This document shows, piece after piece, positions 5,701 to 61,588 of a DNA stretch of 64,000 nucleotides. The notes beneath the pieces were generated by a model, which worked only from the letters and a program-made list of their open reading frames with translations, did no database searches and was not told where the DNA came from. Location of the stretch: the NCBI GenBank assembly GCA_963777895.1, contig CAVZSF010000003.1, positions 205,832 through 269,831 on the forward strand. Reading direction: 5' to 3'. The position numbers and the translations under genes are program-made. How positions within the stretch are numbered: position 1 is the first letter of the stretch; the number at the start of each line of letters is the position of its first letter. Source of the stretch: an uncultured Thermoleophilia bacterium (GTDB lineage Bacteria; Actinomycetota; Thermoleophilia; UBA2241).

Positions 5701-5738
5701 CAGTACCGCGTTGGAGCGGCCGGTCCGGGGGCCCGTCC

Positions 5739-5850
5739 CGTCGCGATCCGTGAGCCTGAGAGTTTCGGCGGCCTGCCGGCCCCTTGCCCCTTCGGCGCCC
5801 GTCTCTCCGGCTGGTCACGGCTGCCGGCGACGGTCTCTCTCGCGACGTTC
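5739..5850 (-). promoter_or_regulatory. Glycine riboswitch (single aptamer)
   Basis: Minus strand GTCGCGAGAGAGACCG...CGCCGAAGGGGCAA...GAAACTCTCAGGC...TCGCGAC matches the glycine aptamer core; lies upstream of the gcvT-containing operon. Confidence 0.88.
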
Positions 5851-5886
5851 AGTCGGGCTTCCTCTGCGATGCAGTGCAGGCGGAAT

Positions 5887-6453: not shown

Positions 6454-7938
6454 CTAGGCGACCTCTGCCGCGCCCGGTTCGGCGCCGCCCGACGGCGCGT
6501 CGGCTGCAGTCGCCATGGGGACGGGTCCGCCTGAGGATCTGCCCCCGGCCGCCGTCATGTCCGCCAGGATCGTCTCGAGTAGCGGGAGCAGGAGCTGCAC
6601 CCTGCTGTGACGTATGGCGACGTCCCACAGCGGCTCCATCTTCTTCCAGCCCGCGGTGTAGAGCAGGTGACGCAAGCGCGCCGCTGCCCCGTCCTTCGTC
6701 GCGGCCGCCGTCAGGATGGAGCGCCAGCTGTAGAAATCCCGATAGGCCCGTCGATAGCCGGCCTCGAGCTGGGAGGGTGACATGAGTGCGGGGCTAAAGA
6801 CGGCATGGCGTGTGTCGTAGCGGTCCCAGTCGTTCGTGAGCATCCGTCCTTCTGCCGTGAGGCGTCGCTCGAGAGCGGTGCCGGGGTACGGGGTCAGGAT
6901 GTGGAAGGTGGCCGTCTCCACCCCTTGCGCGACGGCCCACTCCGCCGTGCGGCCGAACACGGAGCGGTCGTCCTGGTCCATCCCGAAGACAAAGCTCGCG
7001 TTGACCATGACGCCGAGGTCGTGCATGCGCCGGATGGCGGCCTCGTACCGCAGGCGCGTGTCGCGCCCGCCGGCGTCGGTCGCGCGCTCGAGGTTCTGCA
7101 CCTTCCCGACGGAGCGTAGCCCTTCCGGCGAGAGCGTCTCGAACCCGACGAACAGGCTGCGGCAGCCAGCCTCGACCGCGCGCTCGAGCAGGCCCGGGCG
7201 GAGCACGCCTTCCACGGTCGCCGCCGCCTGCCAGACGCGGCCCATGCCACGCATGCCTTCGAAGAGTCGCGCGGCGAAGCGCGGGCTGCCGAACAGGTTG
7301 TCGTCGAGGAAGTAGAGGTGCCGGCCGGGGAGCCTTTCGACCTCGGTGAGGGCTTCGCGGAGCGGCTGCAGGTAGAAGGAGCTGCCGCCGGCGAAGAACG
7401 ACTCCTTGTAGCAGAACTCGCAGAGGTGGGGGCAGCCACGCGAGACCACGAGCGAGTTCGGCACCAGGTAGAGCCCGCGCTTGATCAGGTCGCGCCGTGG
7501 AGGGGGAGCACCGGCCAGACTGCGAGTGTGCGAGCGGTAGATGCGGCCGGGCGAGCGCGCCTTGAGATCGGCGAGAAAGCGCGGCCAGATGTCCTCCCCG
7601 GGTCCGACGAAGACGCTGTTCGCGTGTCTTGCGGCCTCGACGGGGAGGGCAGTCGGGTGGAGGCCGCCCAGACAGACGTGGGCGCCACGGTCGCGGTAGT
7701 GGACGGCGAGCGCGTAGGCACGCCGCGCCGAGGTGACGTACGCCTCGATGACGACGAGGTCGGGCTCGCGGTCGAGGGGCACGTCTTCGACGTGCTCGTC
7801 GCAGAGCTCCACCTCGTCGTCCGGGTCGAGGTAGGCGGCCAGCGTCGCCAGCCCGAGCGGCGGGAAGAGCGAGTACTTCAAGGGTCGCCGCGGGCCGGCT
7901 GCTGCCGATTCCCGGGGCAGGATCATGAGGACCTTCAT
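6454..7938 (-). CDS. Cobalamin-binding (class B) radical SAM protein
   Basis: True start MKVLMILP at 7938 (ATGA overlap with upstream stop); PPLGLATLAA, GGLHPT, SRGCPHLCEFC (CxxxCxxC), FLDDN, GFET, TPYPGT. Confidence 0.9.
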   Translation of the reverse strand: MKVLMILPRESAAAGPRRPLKYSLFPPLGLATLAAYLDPDDEVELCDEHVEDVPLDREPDLVVIEAYVTSARRAYALAVHYRDRGAHVCLGGLHPTALPVEAARHANSVFVGPGEDIWPRFLADLKARSPGRIYRSHTRSLAGAPPPRRDLIKRGLYLVPNSLVVSRGCPHLCEFCYKESFFAGGSSFYLQPLREALTEVERLPGRHLYFLDDNLFGSPRFAARLFEGMRGMGRVWQAAATVEGVLRPGLLERAVEAGCRSLFVGFETLSPEGLRSVGKVQNLERATDAGGRDTRLRYEAAIRRMHDLGVMVNASFVFGMDQDDRSVFGRTAEWAVAQGVETATFHILTPYPGTALERRLTAEGRMLTNDWDRYDTRHAVFSPALMSPSQLEAGYRRAYRDFYSWRSILTAAATKDGAAARLRHLLYTAGWKKMEPLWDVAIRHSRVQLLLPLLETILADMTAAGGRSSGGPVPMATAADAPSGGAEPGAAEVA

Positions 7939-19115: not shown

Positions 19116-19191
19116 TGGTGGAGCATAGCGGAATCGAACCGCTGACCTCCTGGGTGCGATCCAGGCGCTCTCCCAGCTGAGCTAATGCCCC
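19116..19191 (-). tRNA. tRNA-Ala (CGC)
   Basis: GGGGCATTAGCTCAGCTGGGAGAGCGCCTGGATCGCACCCAGGAGGTCAGCGGTTCGATTCCGCTATGCTCCACCA: 76 nt, G3:U70, anticodon CGC, encoded CCA. Confidence 0.97.
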
Positions 19192-36634: not shown

Positions 36635-37372
36635 TCAGACGCGGGCTGCCTGCCGGCGCACGACCTCCTGCGCGAGGAAGCTGGCGACCTCGAGCGGGGT
36701 CGTACGCGGCCCGAAGCCCGCGTCGTAGCCGAGCTCCTTGGCGAAGGCGTTGTTGATGCGCGGGCCGCCCACGATGAGCACGAAGCGCTCGCGCACGCCT
36801 TCGGCCTCGAGCAGCTCGATGAGCTGCGTGAGGTGCTGCACGTGGATGTTCTTCTGGGTCACCACCTGTGAGACCAGAATGGCGTCCGCGTTGCGCTCGA
36901 GCGCGGTCTTGAGCAGCTGGGCGCAGGGAATCTGCGATCCCATGTTGAGCGCGTCGATCTGCGGGTAGCGCTCGAGGCCGTAGTTGCCGGCGAAGCCCTT
37001 CATGTTGAGGATCGCGTCGATGCCGACCGTGTGCGCGTCGCTCTCGATGGCGGCGCCCACGACGACCAGCTTGCGGCCGAGCTCCTCCTTGATCAGGGCG
37101 TTGATGGCGTAGTAGTCCATCGCCTCGACCTCGAGGTAGTCGCCCTTGACGTCGTCGGGGTCGATGCCCACGTCCGTACGAGCGTAGGCCACATAGAACG
37201 TGAAGTCGGGATCGATGCCCTTGCACTCGGCGATCGCCACGTTGTGGTAGCCGAGCTTCTCGAGGTACTGCTTGCCCACGTCCGGGGCCTTCACGGAATA
37301 GCCGATCGGCAGCGTGAAGGAGAACTGGATGACGCCGTCGTCGCGGGTGTCGCCGTAGGGACGGACGATCAT
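36635..37372 (-). CDS. kamE: Lysine 5,6-aminomutase beta subunit (AdoCbl-binding)
   Basis: VRPYGDTRDDG, DAHTVG (DxHxxG), LNMKG (PLP Lys), SQVVTQ, GGPRI. Confidence 0.94.
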   Translation of the reverse strand: MIVRPYGDTRDDGVIQFSFTLPIGYSVKAPDVGKQYLEKLGYHNVAIAECKGIDPDFTFYVAYARTDVGIDPDDVKGDYLEVEAMDYYAINALIKEELGRKLVVVGAAIESDAHTVGIDAILNMKGFAGNYGLERYPQIDALNMGSQIPCAQLLKTALERNADAILVSQVVTQKNIHVQHLTQLIELLEAEGVRERFVLIVGGPRINNAFAKELGYDAGFGPRTTPLEVASFLAQEVVRRQAARV

Positions 37373-48156: not shown

Positions 48157-48876
48157 TTGAGCTCGTTCGACGACCTCATCGAACTGTTCGCGCTCGGGGA
48201 GCACCAGGCTTGGGCGCTGGACCGCTACGTAAGCCTGCTGGCCGGCTGGCGCCGTGCCAATCTGAGCGGGCTCAAGTCCCGTGATGACCTCATCGAGATC
48301 CTGCTGGGCGACTCGCTCGCCTTGCTGGACGTGCCGGCGCTTGCCCAGGCGGGCTCGCGCTGGGCCGATCTCGGCGCCGGCGCCGGCATCCCCGGCATCC
48401 CGCTGGCGATCGCCGTCCCGTCGCCGCCGCGGCTGACGCTGCTCGAAGCCACGGGCAAGAAGTGCGCCTTCCTGCGCGAAGCCGTCGTCGTGGCGGGGCT
48501 TGCCGGGAACGCGACGGTCGCGTGTGCACGCAGCGAGGAGTACGCGCGGCCCGGGGAGGACGGTGGCCGCGAGCACTCCGACGTGGTGCTGGCGCGCGCC
48601 GTCGCGCCGCTCGCCACGCTCGTCGAGCTCGCGGCCCCCCTGCTCGCGCCGGGCGGTATCCTGCTCGCCAGCAAGACGAGGGCCGCGGCGGAGGCGGAGG
48701 GGCCGGCCGGTGCTGAGTCGGCAGCCACCTGCGGCCTCAGCGGGCGGGGCGTGGTGCCACTGCCGCGCTCCCCGTTGCATGACGCGGTCTGCGTGGTGTT
48801 CGAGAAGACGCGGGCGACGCCCGGCTGGTTGCCGCGGCGGCCGGGCCTGGCCGCCAAGCGGCCGCTGGCGGGGTGA
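48157..48876 (+). CDS. rsmG: 16S rRNA m7G527 methyltransferase
   Basis: ANLSG, DLGAGAGIPG, LLEATGKKCAFL, ARAVA, PRRPG; directly before parAB. Confidence 0.9.
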   Translation: MSSFDDLIELFALGEHQAWALDRYVSLLAGWRRANLSGLKSRDDLIEILLGDSLALLDVPALAQAGSRWADLGAGAGIPGIPLAIAVPSPPRLTLLEATGKKCAFLREAVVVAGLAGNATVACARSEEYARPGEDGGREHSDVVLARAVAPLATLVELAAPLLAPGGILLASKTRAAAEAEGPAGAESAATCGLSGRGVVPLPRSPLHDAVCVVFEKTRATPGWLPRRPGLAAKRPLAG

Positions 48877-48916
48877 CACGGCCGCCAGTATCATCGCGGG
48901 GGATGGAGGGGCAGGC

Positions 48917-49670
<754 letters not shown>

Positions 49671-49678
<8 letters not shown>

Positions 49679-50558
49679 GAAGAAGGCGCTCGGGCGCGGC
49701 CTGGGGGCGCTGATCGGCGAGAACAAGGCGGCCCTCGCCAGGGCCGGCATGGCCGGCGCCGAGGGCCGCCTCCGCGAGCTCGAGCTCAGCGAGATCCGCG
49801 TCAACCGGCGGCAGCCGCGGCGCAGCTTCGACGAGGGCGAACTCGCCGAGCTCGCCGCGTCCATCGGCGCGCTCGGCGTGGTCCAGCCCGTCGTCGTCCG
49901 GCCCTTTGACGAACCGGGCGGCGGCGCGCGCTACGAGCTGATCGCCGGCGAGCGCCGCCTGCGCGCCGCGGGCCTCGCCGGCCTCGAGACGATCCCCGCT
50001 CTGGTGCGCGCGGCCGACGAGGCCGGCGCGCTCGAGATCGCGCTCGCCGAGAACGTCGCCCGTGAGGACCTGAACGCGATCGAGGAGGCGCAGGCGTTCG
50101 CCGCTCTGGTGGACGAGTTCGGCCTGACGCACCAGCGGGTCGCCGAGCTGGTCGGCCGCAGCCGCACGGCGGTCACCAACGTCCTGCGCCTGCTCGAACT
50201 GCCCGACGACGTGCAGGTGATGATCGAGCGCGGTGAGCTCTCCGAGGGACATGGGCGCGCGCTCCTGGGGCTGGCGGACCACGGTCGCCGTCGCAGCGCC
50301 GCGCGCCTGGTGGCCCAGCGCGGCCTGAGCGTACGCGAGACCGAAGCGCTCGTGCGCAAGCTCAACCAGCCAGAGGCGCCTCCCGCCGCACCGGCGGACT
50401 CCCCCTCAGAGCTGGGCGACCTGATCGATGAGCTGTACGGCCTGCTCGAGGCGCCCGTGCGAATCCGCGCCGGGCGGCGTGGCGGCCGTATCGAGATCGG
50501 CTACAAGGACCAGGCCGAGCTGGAGCGGCTGCTGGCCCTACTGCGCGGCCTGCGCTGA
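49671..50558 (+). CDS. parB: Chromosome partitioning protein ParB/Spo0J
   Basis: KKALGRGLGAL, QPR, ELIAGERRLRA, ENVAREDLN, GRSRTAVTNVLRLL. Confidence 0.95.
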
Positions 50559-50586
50559 CGGCGACGACCACTGAGCGCGGTCTACG

Positions 50587-50617
50587 GCGCGTATGACGGG
50601 CGAGCCCCGATACGCGC
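50587..50617. terminator. Hairpin between convergent parB and the B12 operon
   Basis: GCGCGTAT...ATACGCGC outer stem with inner CGGG/CCCG pairing. Confidence 0.45.
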
Positions 50618-50618
50618 T

Positions 50619-51254
50619 TCAGCCGCCGCCGTGACGATCGCCCGACTGGGTGGTCGGGACGCTCGTCGGCGTCGCGTTCGTGCCCACGGCGCCGGTCGTG
50701 TCGGTGGTGCCGGTAGAACCCGACGTGGCCGGGCCCGTCTGGCCGGGCGCGGGCATGGCCGGGGCCGTGGGTGTCGGCGTTACCGTCGGCGTCACGCCCG
50801 GCGTGGGCGTGACGCCCGGCACCGGCGTCGACCCGGCGGGCGCGGTCTCGGTGGCCGGGACGTAGACCGTGGTCCCGTCCGCGAGCCTGTAGAAGGACCC
50901 GATCAGTGTGCCGACCCCGCTCACCTGCTGGCCCTGCTGGAGGTCCAGGCGCTCGATGGTGTCGCCGTTCTTCACGACGACCTGCATGTCCTCGGTGCCC
51001 GGGTTCGTCACGATGGTCATGTCCTTGCCCGTGAGGAGATCGCTCATCCCCAGGCCGGTGAGCGCCGCCAGCAGGAAGCCGACGGCGAGCACGATGGCCA
51101 CGTCAAAGAGGTTGACGATGCCGTCGAGAGGGTCGCCGTTGCGATCGTGACGGTCGATGCGGCGTCGCTTCATGTAGTGCAGCTTCATGCCGGCGCCCGG
51201 CTCGTCGAGCACGGTCGGCATGAACTGGATGTCGCTGTCGTCGACCTGGGTCAT
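50619..51254 (-). CDS. DUF2149 family single-TM protein with Pro/Thr-rich tail
   Basis: DPLDGIVNLFDVAIVLAVGFLLA, NPG, GSFYRLADGTTVYVP; follows a MotA/ExbB gene. Confidence 0.8.
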   Translation of the reverse strand: MTQVDDSDIQFMPTVLDEPGAGMKLHYMKRRRIDRHDRNGDPLDGIVNLFDVAIVLAVGFLLAALTGLGMSDLLTGKDMTIVTNPGTEDMQVVVKNGDTIERLDLQQGQQVSGVGTLIGSFYRLADGTTVYVPATETAPAGSTPVPGVTPTPGVTPTVTPTPTAPAMPAPGQTGPATSGSTGTTDTTGAVGTNATPTSVPTTQSGDRHGGG

Positions 51255-51275
51255 CGGTCCCCTCGGGTCAGGCTG

Positions 51276-52223
51276 TCAGGACGGCTCGTCGGCCGGTCCC
51301 AGATCGGCGAACGGGTCGTCGTCGGCGACGAGCAGCGGCCGCAGGTCGATGTCGCTGAGCGGCTCGAGTACCTCGGTCGACGAGCCGTCCTCGCCCGCAG
51401 CCGGGGCCGCGACGGGGGCGGCCGGCGGCGCAGCCGGCCCGGCCGCCGGCACCAGCGGCTTCCGCGGCAGCGCGCCCGCCGCCTCCGGCGTCTCGCCCGT
51501 GGTCACGTCACCGGGCAGGACGACCTGCTCTTCGACCCAGCGCCCCTCGGTGTCCTTGCGGCGGCCCGCCTTGAGACGGCGCGGGCCGCCCTCCAGCAGC
51601 TCGAGGAGGTATTCGAGGTCGGAGATGTCCTGGGAGTAGATGCGGTCGCGGATGATGCTGATGAGGAAGCCCAAACCGCCGATGAGCAGACCGATGACGG
51701 TGACCGAGAACGCGATGCGCAGGTTCTCGGCGAGGGTCGCCGTATCGCCTTCGGCCAGGGCGGCCAGCGCAGGGGCGAGGGGGATCAGCGTTCCCATCAG
51801 ACCCAGCATCGGGCCGATACGGACCAGGATGCGCGTCCGCTCGAGGCGCTTGATCGTGTAGAACTCGTACTCCTGGAGGAGCTTGAGTGGCTTCACGGCG
51901 AGACGCTGCGTCTGGTAGTTGCGGATGAGGTCGAAGAGGAAGCGCGCGACCACCATCGAGTACTTGTTCTCCTGCAGGTAGCGGTAGGCGCGCCGCGGCT
52001 TGCCGTCGGCGAAGGCCTGGCGTGCCCGCAAGGTGCGGATCTCGAGCGCCTCGAGGTCCCGATAGCGGGCTCTGAGGTACAGCTCGTAGACGAGCCAGCC
52101 CAGTTCGATCAGCACCCACACGAGGCAGACGATCGCAGCGATGAGGACCGGGTAGAAGAGCAGCTCGGCGGCGTTGAAGATCGCCTGCTGGATGTCGTCT
52201 GCGAGGCTCGCTACTGGCAGCAT
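51276..52223 (-). CDS. MotA/TolQ/ExbB proton channel family protein
   Basis: RIGPMLGLMGTLIPL, LRIAFSVTVIGL, three TM segments; ATG 52223. Confidence 0.88.
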   Translation of the reverse strand: MLPVASLADDIQQAIFNAAELLFYPVLIAAIVCLVWVLIELGWLVYELYLRARYRDLEALEIRTLRARQAFADGKPRRAYRYLQENKYSMVVARFLFDLIRNYQTQRLAVKPLKLLQEYEFYTIKRLERTRILVRIGPMLGLMGTLIPLAPALAALAEGDTATLAENLRIAFSVTVIGLLIGGLGFLISIIRDRIYSQDISDLEYLLELLEGGPRRLKAGRRKDTEGRWVEEQVVLPGDVTTGETPEAAGALPRKPLVPAAGPAAPPAAPVAAPAAGEDGSSTEVLEPLSDIDLRPLLVADDDPFADLGPADEPS

Positions 52224-52254
52224 CAGGAGTGGCTCCCTCTCGTGGGTTCGGGTG

Positions 52255-54040
52255 TCAGGAGGTCCACGGCAACCTGGCCTTGAAGCGCTGCCACGGGGTG
52301 CCGCCGCCCGGCAAGACCTTGCCCTGCCCGGCCTCGGCGAGCGCGCCCGCCTGCCGACGATGCACGAGGTACGAGAGCGCCGCTCCCGCCGGCAGCATGG
52401 CGAGGAGCACCGCGCCGATGGCGCCGCCCTCGCCATTGTCGCCGTCCGTCGTCTGCGCCGGTGACCGTTGCGCTGGGCGACGGCAGTGGAGAGTCGCTCA
52501 CGCCGGGTGTCGGCGTCAACGGCGTGCCGGTCACGGACCCGGGGTCTGTCGTGGTCCCTGGTGTGCCTGTGGCGCTCGCCGTCGGCGTCGGGGTGGGGTA
52601 CAGGGTGGTCGTCGGGGTCGGCGTGGACGCGGGCGGCGTGTAGCCGCCGCCGGGGTTGTAGGGGGGGGTGGGGGAGCCGCCGCCGGACGACGTCGAAACC
52701 GACACCGTGAAGGTGTGCTTCACGGATCTGCTGTTGCCGGCGCGGTCTCTGATCCGGATCTCCACCGAATGAGTCCCGTTCGGGACGTCGATGAGGCTGA
52801 GTTTCACGGTCGAGGAGCCGATCTTCGCTTTGCCTGTCCTGTTGACGCCGTCGACGAAGATCCTGACGGCGCCCTTGTCGACACCGGTGCCGTTTCTGGT
52901 GTCGGCGTACGCGGCGCTCACCGCGACGTCGTTCGTGGTGGTGAACCTGGCGCCGTCGGAGGGCTTGAACGAGGAGACCTTGGGACGGAACGCCGAGGCA
53001 GGGCCGCCACTGTCGACGAAGGGGAAGGCCTCGCCGCCCAGCGCCACGGTCACCTGGGTGGTCGTCATCATCGTGCTGTCGCCGCCCGAGCTGGAGGAGT
53101 GGGCGAAAGCGCCGTTGGAGCGTTGAAGCGTGCCCAGATAGGAAAGGGCCGTCTTGACCCAGGCCTGGCCGCCGTTCTTCGTGGCATAGGCGGCTTGGAC
53201 GGCCCACGCGGTGGACTCCGCGTTCGACCTCGGGTTCGACGGCAGCGACGGGAAGCCGCCGTCCGAGCGCTGATGGTCCTTGATCCACGCCAGGCCGCTG
53301 GCGACGGCGGGGGAGGATGCGTTCTGGCCGGCGGCGACGAGGGCCTGGACCACGGCTGCGGTCTGGTCGATGGTGCTCCCCAGGTTGTCGGCATCGCCCG
53401 TGGAGGTGGTGAAGCTCCACCCGTGGTCCGGGTTCTGGGCCGCCACCAGCCAGGCCGCCGCCGCCGTGACCAGCTCGCTGCTTTGCGCCTGGTTGGCCGC
53501 CCTCAGCGCGAGGAGCGCCCACGTCGTGGTGCTCACGTCGGCCTGGCTGCGGTCGCCCGACGTCGCGAGCGAGTAGTGTCCGTCGTCGGCGCGGTACAGG
53601 TTCATCTTGTTGAGGAGGTCGATGCGGGGCGTGCCGGCGGACCAGATGAGCCCGTTGCGGCCGATGGCGCCGTAGGCCAGCATGACCTTGGCGTAGAACG
53701 CCGGCGCGTTCACGCTGCCGCGCGCCCTCGCCTCGAGGTCAGACGCCTGCATGTAGTCGAGCGGGTCCTTGCCGCTCACGTCCCAATCGGTCACCTTCTC
53801 GCCGCCGGCGGCGATCGCCAGCATCGTCCACGGGGTCGTGTTGGCGAGGTCCATGGCGAGCGAGCCGGCGTCGCCGAAGCCGCCGGAGGACTGCTGCTTG
53901 GCGTGGAAGAAGTCGAAGGCCTTGGCGATCTTCGGCGGCGGCACCGCGGCGGCGGCGCCGGGCATGGCGAAGCCGAGCAGCAGCGCCGCCGCAAGGACGG
54001 CGACGAGCACAAAGGCCGGCAGGGATCGGTTCTCGTTCAT
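52255..54040 (-). CDS. Exported prenyltransferase/squalene-cyclase-repeat (alpha/alpha barrel) protein with Ig-like domain, P/T linker and C-terminal TM anchor; +1 frameshift at ~52457
   Basis: Signal peptide; QW-like repeats QQSSGGF, AQNPDHGW, HQRSDGGF, LQRSNGAF; the shifted frame gives ..GGAIGAVLLAMLPAGAALSYLVHRR.. ending at TGA 52255. Confidence 0.8.
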
Positions 54041-54783
54041 GGCGTGTCCTCCAGTTCCACGAACGTGACACGGGTCCGGGCGCGGAACCGGGCCACAATA
54101 GTAGCAGCCTGTACGCCGAAAAGACCAGCAAACAGGCAGGTCGCGGCGATGTGTGCAAGGTCGAAGGGCAAGCCCTGGGCGTACAACGCGAGCAACGCCG
54201 GAAGTGTCCGGGGGGTGTAGGCGAGGAACATCCACAGGGTCACGAACCAGTCGAAGGCGAGGGCGAGCAGGCCGCCGCAGACGACCAGCTCCCAGCGGCG
54301 CGGCATGCGGCCGCCGCGGCCGAGCAGGCCGCCGGCGGCCCCGACCGCGCCCCACGCCAGCATCTGCCACGGCGTCCAGGGGCCCTGGCCGAAGAACAGG
54401 TTCGAGACGAGCGCTGCGGTCGCGCCGACCATGAACCCGGGGCCAGAGCCCAGGGCGACGCCGGAGACCATCACGACGAACGTCACGGGCTTGACGTTGG
54501 GCAGCGACGCGAACAGGACGCGGCTGGCGGTGGCGAGGGCCGCCAGCGCCGCCACGAGCGCGAGCTCGTGGGCGGCGTTCGCCCTCGCTCCGTACGACGC
54601 GACACCCACGGCGACGAGCGCCAGCACGATCACGAAGCTTGCCAGGCCCCAGTCGACGGCGGCGGGGTCCGCCACCGCCCACAGGGCGAGGCCTCCGGCG
54701 AGGGCCACCAGGGCGACGAGCACGAGCCGGCTCACCGGCACGCGGGCCGTCCACGGCGGGCGACGGGTACCTGAGTCGATCAC
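54037..54783 (-). CDS. ECF transporter S component (CbrT-like)
   Basis: ASRVLFASLPNVKPVT, SNLFFGQGPWTPWQMLAWG, GLPFDLAH; GTGA overlap start. Confidence 0.88.
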   Translation of the reverse strand: MIDSGTRRPPWTARVPVSRLVLVALVALAGGLALWAVADPAAVDWGLASFVIVLALVAVGVASYGARANAAHELALVAALAALATASRVLFASLPNVKPVTFVVMVSGVALGSGPGFMVGATAALVSNLFFGQGPWTPWQMLAWGAVGAAGGLLGRGGRMPRRWELVVCGGLLALAFDWFVTLWMFLAYTPRTLPALLALYAQGLPFDLAHIAATCLFAGLFGVQAATIVARFRARTRVTFVELEDTP

Positions 54784-56456
54784 TGCGGCGACACCCCCCA
54801 CGTCACCTCGTCCTCGTGAAGGATGCCGGGGAGGGCGTGACGCAGCAGGCGGTTGACCTGCGTCGAGAAGAAGAGCGAGCCGTTGAGGACGTCCGCGGCT
54901 GGGCCGTCGGCGAGGACGCCCCCGTCGCCCACGACGACGACGCGCGTGGCGCAGCGCGCCGCGAACTCGACGTCGTGGGTCACGAGGAGCACGCAGCGGT
55001 CGGCGGCGGCCCAGCGGCGCAACGTCGCTGCCAGCTCGTTCTTGTGCGTCGGGTCCATCCCGCGCGTCGGCTCGTCCAGCACGACCAGAGCCGGGTCGAC
55101 GCACGTCACGGCGGCGAGCGCGGCACGCGTCCGTTCGCCGCCGGACAGCGAGCGGGGGTCGCGCTCGACCAGGCCGCCCAGGTCGAGGTCGGCGATCGCC
55201 TTGTCGGCGAGCGTCCGGCGCTTGTCCTCATCCGGCTCGACCTGGGCCAACGTGTAGTCGATCTCCTGCGCGACGGTATCGCGCACGAAGTAGTCGTTTG
55301 GGTCTTGGCCGAGCAGCGCGCAGCCGCGCGCCGCCTCGGCCACGGACAGGGTCGCCACGTCCCGGCCGAGGAGCGAGACACTGCCGGCGAGGGGGCGCAG
55401 CAGGCCGTTGAAATGACGCACCAGCGTGGACTTCCCCGCGCCGTTCTCACCCATCAGGGCGACCACCTCCCCGCGGCGGAGTTGGAGCGAGACGTCCTCG
55501 AGCAGAGGCGCCTCCCTCTCGTAGCCGACCGTCAGGCCACGCGCGTGCAGCACCGGCTCGCCCGGGCTCTCCGGTCGCTGCTGCGACGCTCGTGCCGGCG
55601 CGCCATCCTCGATCACGTCGAGCATGTGACGTCCGTCCTTCACGGTCATGGGCAGGCCGCCGTCGGCGGCGCGTTCCGCCGCGTGGCCGTTCAGCCGTCG
55701 TGCGAAGAGACGTGCCACCGGTGGGAGGAGTTCGCGGTGGCCCGCGAGGGCCCAGAGCGCGAACTCCTGCGGTGGCGCGTCCACCACGACGGCGCCGTCT
55801 TCCATGTACAGCACCCTGGTCGCGAGATGCAGGCAGCGCTCCACGCGATGCTCCGCCAGCACGATCGTAGAGCCGGTGTCCTCCGAGAGCCGGCGCAGTG
55901 CGGCGAGGAGCTCTTCCGAGCCGACCGGGTCCAGCTGCGAGGTGGGCTCGTCGAGCAACAGCAGATGCGGCTGGACGGCGATGACGGCGGCGAGGGCGAC
56001 CTTCTGCAGCTCGCCGCCGGAGAGCTCGGCCAGGGGCGCGTGCCGCAAGCGGGAGAGGCCCAGCGAGATGAGGGCCTCCTCGACCAGTCGCGTGATCGTC
56101 GACCCATCGACGCCGAGGTTCTCGAGGCCGAAGGCGATCTCGCGCTCGACCGTGGTCATGACGGCTTGGCTCTCGGGATCCTGGAAGACGAGCCCGACGC
56201 GACGCGCCAAGTCGTGGGGCCGGGCGGTGCGGGTGTCGAACTCGTCGACCTGTACCCGGCCGGCGAACGTGCCGCCATGGAAGTGAGGGACGAGACCGTT
56301 GAGGGCGCGCAGCAGAGTCGACTTGCCGCTGCCCGAGCCGCCGACGACGAGGACGACCTCGGCCGGGTCGATGTCGAGGGTAACGTCACACAGGGCGGGC
56401 CGGGCGGCGCCGGGATAGGTGTAGGTCACGCGCTCGAAGCGGGCGATGCGCGTCAC
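54780..56456 (-). CDS. ECF transporter ATPase with two ABC domains
   Basis: GGSGSGKST / LSGGE / LDEPT and GENGAGKST / LSGGE / LDEPT; GTG start 56456. Confidence 0.93.
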   Translation of the reverse strand: MTRIARFERVTYTYPGAARPALCDVTLDIDPAEVVLVVGGSGSGKSTLLRALNGLVPHFHGGTFAGRVQVDEFDTRTARPHDLARRVGLVFQDPESQAVMTTVEREIAFGLENLGVDGSTITRLVEEALISLGLSRLRHAPLAELSGGELQKVALAAVIAVQPHLLLLDEPTSQLDPVGSEELLAALRRLSEDTGSTIVLAEHRVERCLHLATRVLYMEDGAVVVDAPPQEFALWALAGHRELLPPVARLFARRLNGHAAERAADGGLPMTVKDGRHMLDVIEDGAPARASQQRPESPGEPVLHARGLTVGYEREAPLLEDVSLQLRRGEVVALMGENGAGKSTLVRHFNGLLRPLAGSVSLLGRDVATLSVAEAARGCALLGQDPNDYFVRDTVAQEIDYTLAQVEPDEDKRRTLADKAIADLDLGGLVERDPRSLSGGERTRAALAAVTCVDPALVVLDEPTRGMDPTHKNELAATLRRWAAADRCVLLVTHDVEFAARCATRVVVVGDGGVLADGPAADVLNGSLFFSTQVNRLLRHALPGILHEDEVTWGVSPQ

Positions 56457-57460
56457 GGCGTCCTCCTCGACGGGACGAGGGCCGCGGCCGCTGCGGGCAC
56501 GAGCAGAGCGCCGAGCAGGGCCAGCCACCACGGGTCCAGGAGGGCGGGCCAGGGGTCGTCGAGCAGCGGATAGAAGCTGTAGGAGGCGGCGCCGCCGGCC
56601 AAGCCGGCGAGCAGGGCGGCGGCGGCCAGGATGCCGCCCGCCACGAGCGTCACGTCGACCGCCCGCCAGGGCCGCCGCCGCAGCCATCGGGAGCGCGCTC
56701 CGGCTCCGTAGCCCCGCGCCTCCATGGCCGCGGCCACGTCGACGGCGCGCTCCAGGCTGCGCGTGAGGAGCGCGCCGAGCAAGGGCAGGCGTGCAGCCGC
56801 GCGCTGCTTCCGCGTGCCCCGGTCGAGCTCCACGCCGCGGCAGCGCTGGGCGTCGGCGATCCGCCGCGCGTCACTCTGGAGGAGCGGCAGCAGGCGCGAA
56901 GCCAGCGAGAGGACGAGGCCGGAGCGGAAGGAGAACCGGCTGAAGAGTACGAGCTGGTCGTCCGGCGTCAACGCGACGGTCAGCAGCGCGAAGGCGAGGA
57001 CGAGCGCAGCGAGACGCAGGGCGGTCGTCACGCCGTAGACGATGCCCTGCAGCGTCACGGTGATCGTCAAGGGGCCAAGTTCCCACTCCCAGAGCACGTC
57101 GAGGCCGCCGCGGCTGAAGAGCGGGTTCAGCAGCGCGAGGAAGAGACCCACCGCGAGCGCGACGCGCAGATACGGAACGGCCGCGCGCAGGCTGCCGCTG
57201 GCCGCGAGGAGGGCGAGCACGACGGCCAGCAGGACGGCCACCTGCAGCGGGTTCGCGACCACGAGGGCGGCGAACGCGACGGCGGCCACGTAGGTGGCCG
57301 CCGCGACCGGTCGCCGCCCGGCCAGGCCGCGGCCCGGCTCGAACCGGCGGGGGCGAACGCGCCCGCGGGCCGCCCGGACCGGGGCGAGGTCCATCTGGTA
57401 GCGGGGGCCGAACGCCGCGTTGGGCTCATGCACCGTGACGGGGATGCCGGGGCTGCTCAT
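56453..57460 (-). CDS. ECF transporter transmembrane T component
   Basis: LNPLF, DAQRCRG, AAAMEARGYG motifs; ATGA overlap start. Confidence 0.9.
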   Translation of the reverse strand: MSSPGIPVTVHEPNAAFGPRYQMDLAPVRAARGRVRPRRFEPGRGLAGRRPVAAATYVAAVAFAALVVANPLQVAVLLAVVLALLAASGSLRAAVPYLRVALAVGLFLALLNPLFSRGGLDVLWEWELGPLTITVTLQGIVYGVTTALRLAALVLAFALLTVALTPDDQLVLFSRFSFRSGLVLSLASRLLPLLQSDARRIADAQRCRGVELDRGTRKQRAAARLPLLGALLTRSLERAVDVAAAMEARGYGAGARSRWLRRRPWRAVDVTLVAGGILAAAALLAGLAGGAASYSFYPLLDDPWPALLDPWWLALLGALLVPAAAAALVPSRRTP

Positions 57461-58545
57461 GTCGCCCCCCACGGCAGCGCGATGATCTTGTCGTCGACGA
57501 GGGCCACCCCGATCCTCGCGGTCAGGCTCTCAGGGGTGAGATGGAGGAGGATCGCCTCGATGTCGCGGGCCGTCTGTCCCAGCACGACGAGGAGAGGCCG
57601 GTCGGGATCGTCGAAGTTCGGCGCCGCGAGCGCGACGGCCTGAGCTCGGGGGCCTCGATCTCCGCTTGGCGAGAGCAGCGTCAGCGTGCCGGGGTCGGCC
57701 TTCACCAGGGCGAGGCCGCTCTTGTCCGCCGTCAGGAGGTCGGTCAGCCACGGCGCCGCGGCGGCCTGCGAGGCGGTCGCGAGCACCAGGCCGCCCCGAG
57801 GCTGCGCGTCCAGGCTCTGGCGAGCCTCCAGGCGCAGCCCGTTCGCTTTGGCCCACACCTCGAGTCCGGCGACGTCCTGGACGGCGGCGACCGGCAGAGG
57901 CTCGGTGTCGTACGGCCGCGGGAAGGCCGCCAGGGCCTGAGGGATGTACATCGCGTCCGACCAGCGGTGGTAGTCCCACCACACGCTCTCGCCGCCGCGC
58001 AGCTTCCAGCTGCCGGCGCCGACATCGGCCATGACGCCATCGACCCAGTAGAACCAGTCGGCGGCGCCGGCGCTGCTCGTCCCGCTGAAGCTCGACTTGA
58101 GCCCGTCGATGCCGTTGATGAAGCGTCCGCCGTAGCCGGTGTCGATCTCGGCGTTCTCGGCGAGCAGGCGGAGCACGTCGAGCTTGGCGGTGGCGGGGAC
58201 GATGACGTCGCGCAGCACCGTGGCGCCGAAGTCGCGCGAGACGACGAGCCGGACCTCGCCGTTCGTGGGCGGCCGCCCGCCGTCCTTGGCCTGCGAACCC
58301 ACCTCGGATGAGCGGGTGCCGGCGCAGGCCGTGAGGACCAGCGCCGGCAGCACGAGGGCGACGAGGATGGCCGGCAGCGCGAGCCGCCGCAGGAGACGAA
58401 GCCGGCCCGCCGGCCGGTCACGGCGCGCCGTGACGCGGGGCGACGCCGGGAGGCGGCGCGGGCGGGCATCCGCCCGCGCCGCCTCTCCCGAAGGTGTGCG
58501 ACCGCGCGCGTTCATGCCGCCCGGGGTCCGATCGGTCGGTGACAC
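57457..58545 (-). CDS. DUF4430 (transcobalamin C-terminal-like) lipoprotein
   Basis: Lipobox LTAC; VSRDFG, YGGRFINGIDG, DWFYWVDG..VGAG, WWDYHRW; exact start uncertain. Confidence 0.8.
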   Translation of the reverse strand: MSPTDRTPGGMNARGRTPSGEAARADARPRRLPASPRVTARRDRPAGRLRLLRRLALPAILVALVLPALVLTACAGTRSSEVGSQAKDGGRPPTNGEVRLVVSRDFGATVLRDVIVPATAKLDVLRLLAENAEIDTGYGGRFINGIDGLKSSFSGTSSAGAADWFYWVDGVMADVGAGSWKLRGGESVWWDYHRWSDAMYIPQALAAFPRPYDTEPLPVAAVQDVAGLEVWAKANGLRLEARQSLDAQPRGGLVLATASQAAAAPWLTDLLTADKSGLALVKADPGTLTLLSPSGDRGPRAQAVALAAPNFDDPDRPLLVVLGQTARDIEAILLHLTPESLTARIGVALVDDKIIALPWGAT

Positions 58546-58592
58546 TCGCTCATGCTTCCTCTGGTCCGGGTCTCCCCGAAGTCGCGCTCAGC

Positions 58593-59703
58593 TCACCTGG
58601 CGACGATGGTCGTGGTGAGTGGAGTCGCGCTGCGACCCCACGTGTCGGTCGCCGTCAGGCGAACGCGATACGTGCCGGGCCGGACGGGGCGTCCCGCGGC
58701 GTTGTCGCCGCTCCAGCGCAGGGTGTCGGAGCCGCCGGCGAGCCGCCGCGTCAGGGAGGCGATCAGGGCTCCGCTCCTCGAGCGCACGGTGTACTTGACC
58801 GTCGCCGAGCGCGAGAGCGTGAACCCGAACCGCACCGTATCGCGTGACGTGAACGGATCCGGTCGAGCGGTCAACGCCGTCAGTGCGAGCGGGTCGGCGA
58901 TATTGATGCTGCGCTGCAGCGAGCGCACGTAGAAAGACGTGGCGTCCGTCCCCTTCTCCGCCCAGACCCGATACGTCCCCGGAGCGAGGTCGGTGAGCTC
59001 GACCCTGCCCGTGGCGTCCGTCACAGCGGTCCGGCTGCCGATGTGCAGCGTCGCACCGGCCACCGGCTGGAACTGGGTCGGCGTCTCGACGAACGTGTCG
59101 TCGACCTGGAACCGGTCGCGATCCGCAGCCGAGTTGGCCTTCTGGAGGTCGTCGGCGTAGACGGTCACGACGACCGGCTCGCCCGCTCTCCCACGCCCGA
59201 TCGGCTTGGCCGAAGCGGACCACGAGCGCCTTGCCCGCCAGCGTCCAGTCAGGCATCTGCGTGAAGAGCACGCTGTCGCCGGCCTTCAGGTTGAAGGCGA
59301 GGGCACTGTCTTCGAAGACCGGCCAGCCGGCTCCGTTGACGGCGAAGATCCACCCGTAGGAGCCGTCGGCCAGCGAAGAGAAACCCCCGATCTCCGTGAC
59401 GAAGTTGCCACCCGACGTCGCTTCCCAGGAGAAGCCCTTCGCGCGCGCCGCGGCTGCGAGGGCGCCCAAGACTGAGGCGTGACCAGGGTGATAGGGATTG
59501 CCCGCGGTGTCGTAGAAGGTCTTCGTCCAGTCGAAGATGAGGGACGTGGGTGAGGCGATGGGATAGGCGGAGGCCTCGACGCGCACCTGCGCCTTGGCTG
59601 TGGGGAGCAGTGGCTCACCCGCGAGGGCGCTCTGCGCAGCGAGCAGTACTGCAAGCAGCGCCAGCGCCGTGGTCAGGAGCAGACGTGACCGGAATCTTCC
59701 CAT
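58593..59703 (-). CDS. Exported DUF4430-like + Ig-like + FlgD-Ig protein; net +1 frameshift near 59170-59215
   Basis: AAAGGAG SD; signal peptide ending ALA; FVTEIGG..GWIFAVNG; second frame has TDATG, PGTY, PDPF, LRWSGDNAAGRPVRPGTY (FlgD-Ig). Confidence 0.75.
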
Positions 59704-59753
59704 GGGGGACTCCTTTCCGGCGCCAGGCGGACCCTGTGCTTGCGAAGCTGCTT

Positions 59754-59790
59754 AAACGAAACGACCCCGCTGCCATCCTCACAGCGGGGT
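59754..59790 (-). terminator. Terminator hairpin of the cobalamin riboswitch platform
   Basis: Minus strand ACCCCGCTG-loop-CAGCGGGGT followed by CGTTTCGTTT. Confidence 0.6.
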
Positions 59791-59850
59791 GGTCGAACAC
59801 TCGGGGAGCGAGTACCCATCCTCGTGGGAAGCAGCTTCGCAGGCGGCTCA

Positions 59851-60025
59851 GCAGGTTTTCTGGCTCCCGGTCGTACTGCACGCGCCCCTGCTGCCTTCCC
59901 GGACCCGCGGGTCCAGTGACTCTCCTAAAGGAGAACGCAGAGGCGGCGACCGGTCACAGCGGCGGGACCGCGCCGGATTCACACCGGCTTCCCTAGAGGG
60001 CACTAGCCGCGCGCCATCTCATTGA
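59851..60025 (-). promoter_or_regulatory. Cobalamin riboswitch
   Basis: Minus strand AGGGAAGCCGGTGTGAATCCGGCGCGGTCCCGCCGCTGTGA...CACTGG..CCGGGAAGG...GAGCCAGAAAACCTGC (B12 box). Confidence 0.93.
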
Positions 60026-60167
60026 TTGGCAGCGGAATCCTACTCCCGCCACGAGGTGTCCGACAAACGGCAGCCGTTCGCCCGGGGGCTGGTACGAGCG
60101 TCTAGTGAGGCTAAGGTGATTCGTGATGTGCGCCGATACAGCGCGTGGTGACGGAGTGAACGAGACC

Positions 60168-60362
60168 ATGGACAACCAGGAACAGGACGAAGTCGAGTTC
60201 TTCGGCATCAAGCTGAAGGTCAACAACGACCGCCTCGCCACGCTGCTCAACAGCAGCGTGAACGACAACGTCGTCGTGGTGGGTCGGCGTACCCTCGATC
60301 TGCTTGCCAAGGCGGACGAGGACGACGACGACATCGCCGTGGAAGGCGTCGCCGTCGAGTAG
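60168..60362 (+). CDS. Small acidic hypothetical protein (64 aa)
   Basis: High-GC3 codon pattern; MDNQEQDEVEFFGIKLKV..; GGAG upstream. Confidence 0.65.
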   Translation: MDNQEQDEVEFFGIKLKVNNDRLATLLNSSVNDNVVVVGRRTLDLLAKADEDDDDIAVEGVAVE

Positions 60363-60511
60363 ACGGGGACGGGCAGTCCAGGACATGGCACGGGGCGGCG
60401 AGCGTGAGCTCGCCGCCCCGTCGCATTCAGGGCCCGCGGATCTCATCCCGCGCGCCGGCTGGAGGCCAGGAACTGCTCGCACCCGCTCAGGGTCGTATGA
60501 TTCCAGACGCC

Positions 60512-61588
60512 ATGGCGCCCCAGCTCTCACTTGTCATCCCGGTCTACAACGAGGTCGCCAGCCTCGAGCCTCTGCTCGCGGAGATCGATGCCGCCGTCGC
60601 CGGCCTCCAGACCTACGAGGTGGTGTTCGTCGACGACGGCTCCAGCGACGGGTCGTTCGCCGAGATGGAGCGCTTGGCCGCCCTGCGTGGTGACGTGCGC
60701 ATCGTGAAGCTGCGCCGGAACTTCGGCAAGGCGGCGGCCCTGGCCCATGGCTTCGCGGCCGCCGCCGGCCCGCTCATCGTTACGCTCGACGGGGACCGTC
60801 AGGACGACCCACGGGAGATCCCCAAGCTGCTCGCGAAGCTCGACGAGGGCTTCGACCTGGTCTCGGGCTGGAAGCAGAGCCGGCAGGATCCCGCCACGAA
60901 GACCGTGCCCTCACGGCTCTTCAACTGGACGGTGCGGCGGACGACCGGCATCCCGCTGCACGACTTCAACTGCGGCTTCAAGGCCTATCGCCGCGAGGTC
61001 GTGGAGAACGTGAACGTCTACGGCGACCTGCATCGCTACATCCCGGTGGTCGCGGCGCAGCAGGGATTTCGGGTGACGGAGGAGCGGGTGGCCCATCGTC
61101 GCCGCACGGCCGGGCACTCGAAGTTCGGCTGGCAGCGGTTCATGCGCGGCTACCTCGACCTGCTCACGGTGCTCTTCCTGGGCAGGTACCACAGCCGCCC
61201 GCAGCACCTCTTCGGCGGGCTCGGCACGCTGATCTTCCTCGTCGGCCTCCTGATCAGCGTCTACCTCACCATCGACAAGCTGTTCTTCGGCCATGCGCTC
61301 AGCGACCGGCCGCTCCTCCTGCTCGGCGTCCTGCTGATGATCGTCGGGGTGCAGCTCGTGTCGCTGGGGCTGCTCAGCGAGCTGATCGTCCACTCGCGCG
61401 CGAAGGCCGGGCCCGAGCCTGCCTGGGTCGAGCGCGTCGTCGACCCCGCGCAGGCGAGGGCCGACCTCGAGGCCGCCGACGCCGCCGCAAGCCCGGGTGA
61501 GGGTCAGGCGTCGCGGAGCGACGAGCCGCGCGCCGCGGACGCCGGGTCGCGCGATGTGGATGTCGCCGGCGAGCGCCACAGACCGTGA
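60512..61588 (+). CDS. GT2 glycosyltransferase (ArnC/GtrB polyprenol-phosphate type)
   Basis: VIPVYNE, VDDGSSD, RNFGK, LDGDRQDDP, HDFNCGFKAY, two C-terminal TM. Confidence 0.93.
   Translation: MAPQLSLVIPVYNEVASLEPLLAEIDAAVAGLQTYEVVFVDDGSSDGSFAEMERLAALRGDVRIVKLRRNFGKAAALAHGFAAAAGPLIVTLDGDRQDDPREIPKLLAKLDEGFDLVSGWKQSRQDPATKTVPSRLFNWTVRRTTGIPLHDFNCGFKAYRREVVENVNVYGDLHRYIPVVAAQQGFRVTEERVAHRRRTAGHSKFGWQRFMRGYLDLLTVLFLGRYHSRPQHLFGGLGTLIFLVGLLISVYLTIDKLFFGHALSDRPLLLLGVLLMIVGVQLVSLGLLSELIVHSRAKAGPEPAWVERVVDPAQARADLEAADAAASPGEGQASRSDEPRAADAGSRDVDVAGERHRP

Follow-up and report, generated by a model that had tools for sequence, protein, structure and literature searches.

A cobalamin-riboswitch operon joining predicted B12 capture proteins, an ECF-CbrT-type importer and a MotA/ExbB-DUF2149 pair in an uncultured Thermoleophilia bacterium

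An eight-gene operon behind a cobalamin riboswitch

Our analysis concerns a 64,000-nucleotide stretch of DNA (hereafter the window; contig CAVZSF010000003.1, positions 205,832 to 269,831, assembly GCA_963777895.1) from an uncultured Thermoleophilia bacterium, and within it an operon of eight minus-strand genes, g1 to g8, that lie behind a cobalamin riboswitch and bring together predicted B12 capture proteins, an energy-coupling factor (ECF) importer and a MotA/ExbB-DUF2149 pair. In a region of GC content 0.65-0.78, these genes were delimited with a frame plot of GC content at third codon positions (GC3), a list of open reading frames (ORFs) and scans with Pfam and NCBIfam. The first, g1 (58593..59703, start codon at 59703), codes for an exported protein in which Pfam points to DUF4430 (SLBB), CarboxypepD_reg-like and FlgD_ig domains, and g2 (57457..58515, alternative start at 58545) for a DUF4430 lipoprotein whose lipobox, LTAC, was read from the sequence. 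They are followed by the ECF T component g3 (56453..57460), the A component g4 (54780..56456), in which two ABC ATPase domains are fused, and the S component g5 (54037..54801, the GTG at 54801 being our choice of start), a homologue of CbrT. The last three genes encode an exported protein hereafter called the barrel (g6, 52255..54040), made up by Pfam and sequence layout of an (alpha/alpha)6 toroid, an immunoglobulin-like (Ig-like) domain, a Pro/Thr linker and a C-terminal transmembrane (TM) helix, then a MotA/ExbB-family protein (g7, 51276..52223) and a DUF2149 protein (g8, 50619..51254; PF09919, 81.4 bits). All eight genes stand in the order and orientation given by the original prediction, which had been made from the sequence letters alone and had called them largely overlapping: four of the seven junctions overlap, by 4 bases at g2/g3 (ATGA), g3/g4 and g5/g6 and by about 22 bases at g4/g5, and the gaps at the remaining ones measure 47-77 (g1/g2), 31 (g6/g7) and 21 bases (g7/g8). 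No convincing terminator was found inside the operon, where two weak matches equal the expectation from shuffled sequence, and no sigma-70-like promoter was found in 50300..60400.

The riboswitch aptamer (59832..60022, minus strand) matches RF00174 over model positions 1-189 with 80.6 bits (E 3e-18), so that the gathering score of the family (31.5 bits) is exceeded across the full aptamer. Downstream lies a terminator-like hairpin (59754..59790, minus strand) with a stem of 10 pairs, 7 of them G-C, followed by the U-tract CGTTTCGTTT; it begins 42 nt past the aptamer, ends 61 nt ahead of the g1 start codon, and is present in the minimum-free-energy fold of 59850..59690 (z -3.0). Because this G+C-rich hairpin with its U-tract stands between aptamer and g1 and forms in the leader fold, the riboswitch most likely acts by transcription termination. 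The cobalamin riboswitch that had been read from the sequence at the head of the operon is thereby borne out, and B12 regulation of the operon is supported, ligand-dependent control being predicted.

Two of the eight genes are interrupted in the assembly. The GC3 frame plot and three-frame translations reveal a one-base frame change near 59181-59185 in g1 and another near 52449-52461 in g6, and past both breaks the GC3 coding signal and the similarity to homologues carry on in the new frame. Homologues of g1 are single ORFs of 352-460 aa in 12 related loci (one further locus gives a 221-aa ORF), and their alignment puts the break after '...QADRAWESG'; a metagenomic contig that is 93% alike (run X3) is one base shorter at 59180, at this very break. 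Among the contigs listed, the g1 break is covered and the g6 break is not, and many joins at side 20-36 resemble other organisms; 20 matching sequencing runs are listed, each with at most 0.16 of the sampled words, and no RNA run is among them. The anchor is in frame in 31 homologues of g6 of about 580-690 aa, and that of g6, read in the shifted frame, matches the C-terminal ends that homologues of 590-605 aa have in frame. Similar g1 breaks are seen in the related loci L034, L041 and L055, and P0007, the representative of the 90% cluster of g6's own protein, has its frame broken elsewhere in the same gene. Since these breaks in g1 and in the barrel gene fall at differing positions, they suggest that related assemblies of the group are prone to indels. 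A programmed frameshift in g1 and g6 was rejected, the homologues being plain single ORFs. We think it probable that both breaks are assembly indels. If they were real, the locus would be decaying, with g1 and the barrel gene as pseudogenes and the ECF core, perhaps also g2, still working. Two one-base frame changes within 9.4 kb would fit such decay, which we judge improbable in view of the GC3 signal and residue conservation that remain unchanged after each break, the different site at which the near-identical P0007 breaks the same gene, the g1 breaks in the three related loci, which fit assembly indel errors, and the 93%-alike contig without the extra base.

At the centre of the operon lies a dedicated importer. 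The T component g3 belongs to the CbiQ family (PF02361, 88.9 bits, cut-off 25), with TIGR02454 at 64.8 bits, under its equivalog cut-off, and g4 is matched by ABC_tran in two stretches (191.5 bits) and exceeds the cut-offs of both ECF_ATPase_1 (TIGR04520, 349.1 bits, cut-off 315) and ECF_ATPase_2 (TIGR04521, 345.1 bits, cut-off 330). The S component g5 matches DUF6580 (33.9 bits) and ECF-ribofla_trS (29.4 bits), and its sole phmmer match in the Protein Data Bank (PDB) is 6fnp_A (182 aa, E 5.2e-14). Entry 6FNP is the ECF-CbrT vitamin B12 transporter of Lactobacillus delbrueckii (Santos et al. 2018, PMC5997447), of which chain A is, judging by its length, probably CbrT. This match supports g5 as the CbrT homologue that had been proposed, with cobalamin as the substrate predicted from sequence. 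The two importers are alike in having homologous S components and in using ECF T and A components, and a substrate of this class agrees with the riboswitch of g1-g8. They differ in that g3-g5 form a dedicated T/A/S operon with a fused double ATPase under a riboswitch, and in that the operon adds a pair of SLBB proteins, one toroid protein and MotA-DUF2149; none of these features is mentioned in the passages of PMC5997447 that a term search brings up, and the word riboswitch is absent from the paper.

The genome (3.2 Mb in 7 contigs, estimated 95.5% complete) holds no other RF00174 match than that at the operon. The source names given to homologous proteins suggest a host from the Thermoleophilia/Solirubrobacterales. 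At this completeness, neither the biosynthetic genes CbiC and CobS nor Omp85 (PF01103) or a TonB-dependent-receptor barrel (PF00593) were found, and B12-binding domains are matched 13 times; together, these results point to a heavy user of B12 that does not produce it and has no outer membrane. From gene content, the host is likely B12-auxotrophic and devoid of an outer membrane, with the operon as its single B12-responsive uptake locus. Two of the 13 B12-binding-domain matches lie elsewhere in the window, on the minus strand at about 36689-37066 and 7582-7866 (G000:C3:242520-242897 and 213413-213697), and likely belong to B12-dependent enzymes. Since g7 is the sole PF01618 match of the genome, the one stator-type protein of this organism is encoded in its one B12-regulated operon. 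The usual clients of a stator are missing, as there is no outer membrane, no other MotA-family gene and no flagellar gene seen (none turned up, none were sought).

DUF4430 proteins, the toroid fold and their ties to the importer

The original prediction had placed a DUF4430 domain in each of the first two genes. For g2 this holds directly (52.9 bits, over the Pfam cut-off); its C-terminal 152 aa have no Pfam match, and in related loci the gene is always immediately upstream of ECF-T. For g1, whose signal peptide was read from the sequence, the DUF4430 match in frame A (21.8 bits) is itself just under the gathering cut-off of PF14478 (23.8 bits), and the assignment is carried by the 64%-identical homologue P0127, which passes at 26.9 bits; FlgD_ig is matched in frame B at 33.5 bits. 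P0127 and P0128 (60-64% identical to g1, 366-367 aa) both carry PF14478 and PF13860, and a database search with the g1 N-domain, in which longer proteins were sought, returned 2 proteins.

The barrel g6 is matched by SQHop_cyclase_C (51.3 bits), Prenyltrans (32.2 bits) and Big_7, and reads as a toroid, an Ig-like domain, a Pro/Thr-rich linker of about 90 aa, a C-terminal TM helix and a conserved tail. Built with 68 sequences, an AF2 model of residues 28-455 reaches a pLDDT of 93.6 and consists of a 12-helix toroid followed by a beta-sandwich. By sequence (phmmer), class II terpene cyclases and squalene-hopene cyclase come nearest among solved proteins (7xq4, E 1.6e-12), and the model's best fold matches in VIA-align, with which Foldseek agrees, are 1gsz (Z 27.7), 8paj (26.4) and 8zg0 (25.9). 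Transcobalamin (2bb6, Z 20.2, 259 residues aligned, rmsd 3.6), haptocorrin (4kkj, Z 20.1) and intrinsic factor (2pmv, Z 19.4) come at ranks 29, 33 and 41, amid glycosidases, epimerases and prenyltransferases. Transcobalamin is not among the best 50 Foldseek matches of the model in the PDB, and no transcobalamin chain appears among the phmmer PDB matches of g6 at E <= 1. The barrel had also been asked to reveal whether it keeps a cyclase site of the DxDD type: no D.DD motif was found in its 526 residues, and it stays far under the cyclase cut-offs (TIGR01787, 48.3 bits against 322.7; TIGR01507, 38.9 against 431.1). The modelled toroid has a non-catalytic look, and its likeness to transcobalamin is one of fold. 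Of the transcobalamin-like barrel that had been proposed, a general likeness of fold is seen (Z 20.2, level with many unrelated toroids) and a family match is not, terpene cyclases being nearer (Z 27.7). A complex prediction pairing barrel residues 1-320 with the SLBB domain of g1 (residues 30-166) scored 0.00, with no controls alongside, and weighs neither for nor against binding.

Animal transcobalamin, intrinsic factor and haptocorrin consist of an (alpha/alpha)6 toroid and an SLBB beta-domain, parts that are likewise encoded here, where they differ in lying on separate proteins and in having no sequence-family match. This kind of capture is not a new idea. Burroughs et al. (2007, PMC1796856) described exported transcobalamin-like SLBB proteins with Ig domains, at times occurring as paralogous pairs, in CbiO/CbiQ operons, as well as SLBB domains fused to toroids on either side, in hosts without B12 synthesis, and predicted a role in B12 scavenging; in contrast with those fusions, toroid and SLBB domains are split between proteins in g1-g8. 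The main text of that paper mentions neither MotA, TolQ or ExbB nor a riboswitch. A 2019 preprint (10.1101/864751) presents lsa1836-1840 of L. sakei, an ECF operon with separate alpha-like and beta-like transcobalamin proteins and, in this, resembling g1-g8, and argues that the system takes up heme, which it models between the two proteins. It differs from our operon in that claim and in that no MotA or DUF2149 occurs in those of its passages that a search for other terms brings up. Both works anticipate the capture idea.

The barrel is tied to the ECF and DUF4430 genes by fusions and by neighbourhood. Among 120 listed barrel homologues with precomputed Pfam annotation, at least 10 are fused to an S component (P0041, P0054, P0062, P0072, P0077, P0080, P0082, P0084, P0094 and P0101), two of them borne out by our own Pfam rescan, and seven further ones are named S components by one source; two more such fusions are found as ORFs in loci L059 and L061. 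In one homologue, P0087, the toroid is directly followed by DUF4430, which is the domain order of transcobalamin. Furthermore, a short barrel paralogue stands beside g2-T-A-S in 8 of 12 further loci (L053 to L056, L058, L059, L061 and L064), of which L058, L059 and L061 have a cobalamin riboswitch, and in same-family genomes whose long barrel is apart from the ECF genes it is a second, short barrel that adjoins g2-T-A-S. In a tree of 40 rows, from which high-scoring segment pairs of fewer than 220 residues (loci) or 200 residues (database proteins) had been dropped, the short barrels group together in a single clade with strong support (100/99). Cobalamin riboswitches also lie just outside L055 and L056, facing away (G033:C3:1002467-1002640 and G026:C51:36852-37051). 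Both signals, genomic context and 'Rosetta stone' fusion, support a functional grouping of the barrel with the ECF and DUF4430 genes, as judged from sequence. A split capture system resembling transcobalamin had been proposed from the outset: the functional grouping stands, a transcobalamin family match of the barrel does not, and a clamp in which barrel and DUF4430 domains would bind B12 between them is a candidate arrangement.

A barrel, MotA/ExbB and DUF2149 triad

The seventh gene product belongs to the MotA/TolQ/ExbB family (PF01618, 30.7-32.2 bits, cut-off 22.9) and has, read by eye from its sequence, three TM helices in an ExbB/TolQ-like layout. In its neighbour g8, a single TM helix with an Asp in it is combined with a small beta domain and a tail rich in Pro and Thr; g8 thereby shares with ExbD and TolR the trait of a single N-terminal TM helix with a mostly kept Asp. 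This Asp, in the context 'NLFDVAIVLAV', is kept in 22 of 27 aligned homologues; we take it to be equivalent to Asp25 of ExbD and liken it to the proton-binding Asp of ExbD, TolR and MotB. Triads of genus g10 in which it is replaced adjoin neither ECF genes nor a riboswitch. The AF2 model of g8 (a helix at 46-67, then five strands) is weak, and with a pLDDT of 62 and a pTM of 0.26 it is too poor for its fold to be searched.

In ExbB-ExbD-TonB, likewise, a protein of the MotA/ExbB family has a single-pass partner bearing a TM Asp, and a third single-pass protein with a Pro-rich spacer reaches outward. The differences are that g6 is anchored at its C-terminus rather than its N-terminus, that its head is a toroid and not the TonB C-terminal domain, and that there is no outer membrane to aim at, so that the comparison is an analogy and not a membership. 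The hmuYRSTUV operon of Bacteroidota offers a second likeness, namely an adjacent MotA/TolQ/ExbB protein (HmuU) and DUF2149 protein (HmuV) in an operon for tetrapyrrole uptake; its hosts are diderm, and it contains the TonB-dependent HmuR, the hemophore HmuY and the CobN-like HmuS, none of which is found among g1-g8. In the papers covered, the role of HmuU/HmuV is a matter of guesses, either powering HmuR or transport across the inner membrane, the latter suggested for HmuT/U/V in a review (PMC12094164).

Of 36 genomes searched from the same family, the barrel was found in 34, and 20 of these matches, on long contigs, were taken with about 14.5 kb around each (a locus search with the single barrel sequence gave no more than two loci, L001 and L002, both weak and unrelated). 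In all 20 loci, and in one locus outside the family, the barrel gene lies together with MotA and DUF2149 as direct neighbours, and the barrel anchor is detected by tblastn in 17 of the 20. The barrel being the constant partner of MotA-DUF2149, the last three genes form a module of their own, a partnership that the original prediction missed. The survey that it had suggested for co-occurrence of all eight genes gives a divided picture: g1-g2-T-A-S lie directly upstream of the triad in 10 of the 20 loci, every one with the riboswitch, and the triad stands alone in the other 10. ECF cassette and triad can therefore occur apart, and B12 regulation in cis does not extend to every triad; the two are combined in the window's genus and in a few other genera. 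In the tree, long barrels that adjoin ECF genes are mixed with long barrels that do not, so ECF adjacency has changed during evolution. Four of the ten lone triads were scanned (L043, L044, L047 and L052), and all four lie beside a divergent GT2/GT1/DUF2079 cluster, similar to the surroundings of the window.

In genome G060, from another family of the class, a riboswitch heads overlapping DUF4430-like, barrel, MotA and DUF2149 genes without any ECF genes, which ties the triad to B12 independently of the ECF cassette. At a second locus of this genome, two divergent riboswitches accompany genes for DUF4430 proteins, T, A and a fusion of S with a barrel. One divergent G060 riboswitch heads a 705-aa exported protein with weak collagen-repeat and Ig-like matches (L060, 10581-12917, plus strand). 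Genome G032 (97% complete) left barrel, g2 and DUF2149 all unmatched with the queries used here, a single case that fits coupled loss.

Within the long barrels (n=31), mean pairwise identity is highest in the TM helix and tail (0.60), followed by toroid (0.54), Ig domain (0.52) and linker (0.43). The g6-type TM helix contains a conserved Pro and leads to a cytoplasmic tail GGGTPWQR(F/L)K; as the best-conserved part of the protein, helix and tail are unlike a passive anchor. Few genomes of the phylum have DUF2149 (12 of 301 sampled). In four other loci of the class (L087, L088, L089 and L093), MotA-DUF2149 is preceded by an exported protein with a PKD head, a low-complexity linker and a C-terminal TM helix, and in G019 by one with a repeat-rich head, a linker and a C-terminal TM helix. 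Locus L095 (G060:C56, 497-9640) contains a PKD protein, MotA-DUF2149, Peripla_BP_2, an ABC ATPase and two HtaA heme-binding proteins, suggesting a heme version of the module in a monoderm. Rfam finds no riboswitch in 12 other MotA-DUF2149 loci, L093, L094 and L095 included. A gene set resembling HmuSTUV occurs in Actinomycetota as well, in L083 and L084, with CobN-like ORFs of 1810 and 1642 aa (the Pfam scan was made on the L083 protein). A toroid-MotA-DUF2149 module was not found described in the main texts that our literature searches covered, and to that extent the link between an anchored toroid and MotA/ExbB-DUF2149, under B12 control, in a bacterium without outer membrane, is new.

Around the operon, a parB-like ORF (49623..50558, plus strand) and a parA-like ORF (48500..49678, plus strand) converge on its end, and a GT2-like glycosyltransferase ORF (60404..61588, plus strand) is divergent, upstream of the riboswitch. 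By Pfam, parBA adjoins the triad also in locus L044, pointing to a conserved chromosomal position, and the site of the GT2-like ORF is occupied in related loci by a GT2/GT1/LPG_synthase_TM/DUF2079 cluster. Elsewhere in the window, a glycine riboswitch aptamer (RF00504, 52.9 bits) lies at 5734-5852 and a tRNA gene (RF00005, 63 bits) at 19119-19191, both on the minus strand.

A candidate motor-assisted uptake system and its rivals

We propose that the operon serves B12 uptake, with capture proteins, an ECF-CbrT importer and a proton-driven stator acting on the anchored toroid, a reading in which we place about as much trust as doubt and which starts from the gene content, riboswitch, family assignments, conserved neighbourhoods and gene fusions observed here. 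When B12 is scarce, the riboswitch would let transcription through the terminator, and all eight proteins would be made. Outside the cell, g1 (free or wall-associated), the lipoprotein g2 and the anchored g6 would capture the corrinoid, which would pass to the CbrT-type S component and be imported, driven by ATP, through the dedicated T/A module. With its wall-spanning Pro/Thr linker, TM helix and tail, g6 would be the client of the dedicated MotA/ExbB-DUF2149 stator: by analogy with ExbB-ExbD-TonB, proton flow through the stator would move or pull the anchored toroid protein, which might either free B12 from the tight grip of the capture proteins or draw the loaded head back through the wall to the membrane transporter. 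The same analogy would give the stator a 5:2 stoichiometry, rotation and contact with the g6 anchor. That the motor may act on the barrel protein is suggested by the conservation of the anchor, by the adjacency of the triad and by the C-terminally anchored proteins found upstream of MotA elsewhere. Animal binders of the transcobalamin type hold B12 tightly, and its release needs proteolysis; a bacterial counterpart in which the binder is used again would thus have to spend energy.

Several observations weigh against this proposal. The reading frame of two of the eight genes is broken in the assembly; squalene-hopene and class II terpene cyclases are the closest relatives of the barrel, the transcobalamin group tying with unrelated toroid enzymes; and the Pfam scan of g6 gives no match at E <= 0.01 to Cobalamin_bind, which we take to be PF01122. 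B12 binding, as well as any pairwise binding among the g1-g8 proteins, is something that we infer. On the side of the stator, g8 has no ExbD/TolR sequence match, PF09919 being the only family at E <= 10, and its TM Asp is replaced by Pro, Leu or Thr in 5 of the 27 homologues, all of genus g10 (L042, L043, L046, L047 and L052). Half of the 20 triads have neither riboswitch nor ECF genes within 8 kb upstream, the ECF and short-barrel loci L053 to L056, from four genomes, have no riboswitch, two genomes of the family have MotA-DUF2149 and no barrel, and L083 and L084, from low-GC members of the phylum, combine CobN-like, DUF2162, MotA and DUF2149 genes without an anchored head. Finally, heme uptake is claimed in the preprint for the homologous L. 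sakei system.

Some of these points would be accommodated if two unrelated modules merely abutted, the riboswitch-ECF-DUF4430 cassette having been inserted in some lineages upstream of a triad that is an envelope device for a non-corrinoid ligand (polyprenyl lipid, hopanoid or glycan), with incidental co-transcription. Such an arrangement would explain the 10 of 20 triads without riboswitch and ECF genes, the GT2/GT1/DUF2079 flank of the four scanned among them and parBA in L044, to which the flanks of the window, with GT2-like ORF and parB/parA, are alike, and it would suit the terpene cyclases as nearest relatives of the barrel and the intermixing of ECF-adjacent and non-adjacent long barrels in the tree. 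We nevertheless consider it unlikely: in G060 the DUF4430-like, barrel, MotA and DUF2149 genes come straight after a cobalamin riboswitch, fusions to S components and to DUF4430 occur among barrels of the same family, the S stop and the barrel start overlap in the window, the barrel has no DxDD and reaches 48 bits where the cyclase family cut-off is 322, and the genomes whose triad is apart from the ECF genes carry a second barrel beside them.

It is quite unlikely, in our estimation, that the motor serves the transporter or a membrane step, acting on the S component or another membrane protein while the barrel is a passive tethered binder. The inner-membrane transport by HmuT/U/V suggested in PMC12094164 would agree with this, as would L083 and L084, where MotA-DUF2149 accompanies CobN and DUF2162 with no anchored head; 10 of the 20 triads, however, persist with no ECF genes nearby, exported proteins anchored by a C-terminal TM helix are repeatedly encoded immediately upstream of MotA, and no region of the barrel protein is as well conserved as its anchor and tail. 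As to the cargo, the heme modelled between alpha-like and beta-like proteins in the L. sakei preprint, together with the MotA-DUF2149 pairs of heme operons and of the HtaA cluster L095, might point to heme or another tetrapyrrole in place of B12. This we hold to be highly improbable, given a cobalamin riboswitch, and not an iron or heme regulator, here and in 10 of 10 loci of the same gene order, an S component whose sole solved relative is CbrT, and a genome with 13 B12-binding-domain matches in which CbiC and CobS were not found.

The proposal of a B12-capturing, motor-assisted operon can be extended, in a form that we offer tentatively and regard as possible but doubtful, to a counterpart of TonB-dependent uptake that monoderms would have of their own, a MotA/ExbB-DUF2149 stator with an exchangeable client protein. 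The client would comprise a head that binds the ligand, a spacer of Ig or PKD type, a wall-spanning Pro/Thr or Gly/Ser linker and, at the C-terminus, a conserved TM helix, its head being a toroid for B12, of PKD type near HtaA heme genes or repeat-rich as in G019, and proton flow would pull or turn it, freeing tetrapyrroles held very tightly on the cell surface to an importer, here ECF-CbrT.

The acquisition of B12 by monoderm bacteria is poorly understood beyond the ECF-CbrT core. In this organism, the only stator found in the genome adjoins a binder and an importer under the only B12 riboswitch, which makes the idea testable. If it is true, force-transducing uptake would extend beyond diderm bacteria, and a job would be suggested for HmuU and DUF2149/HmuV in the heme uptake of gut and oral Bacteroidota; should the wider reading of stator and exchangeable client hold as well, HmuU and HmuV would gain a defined role.

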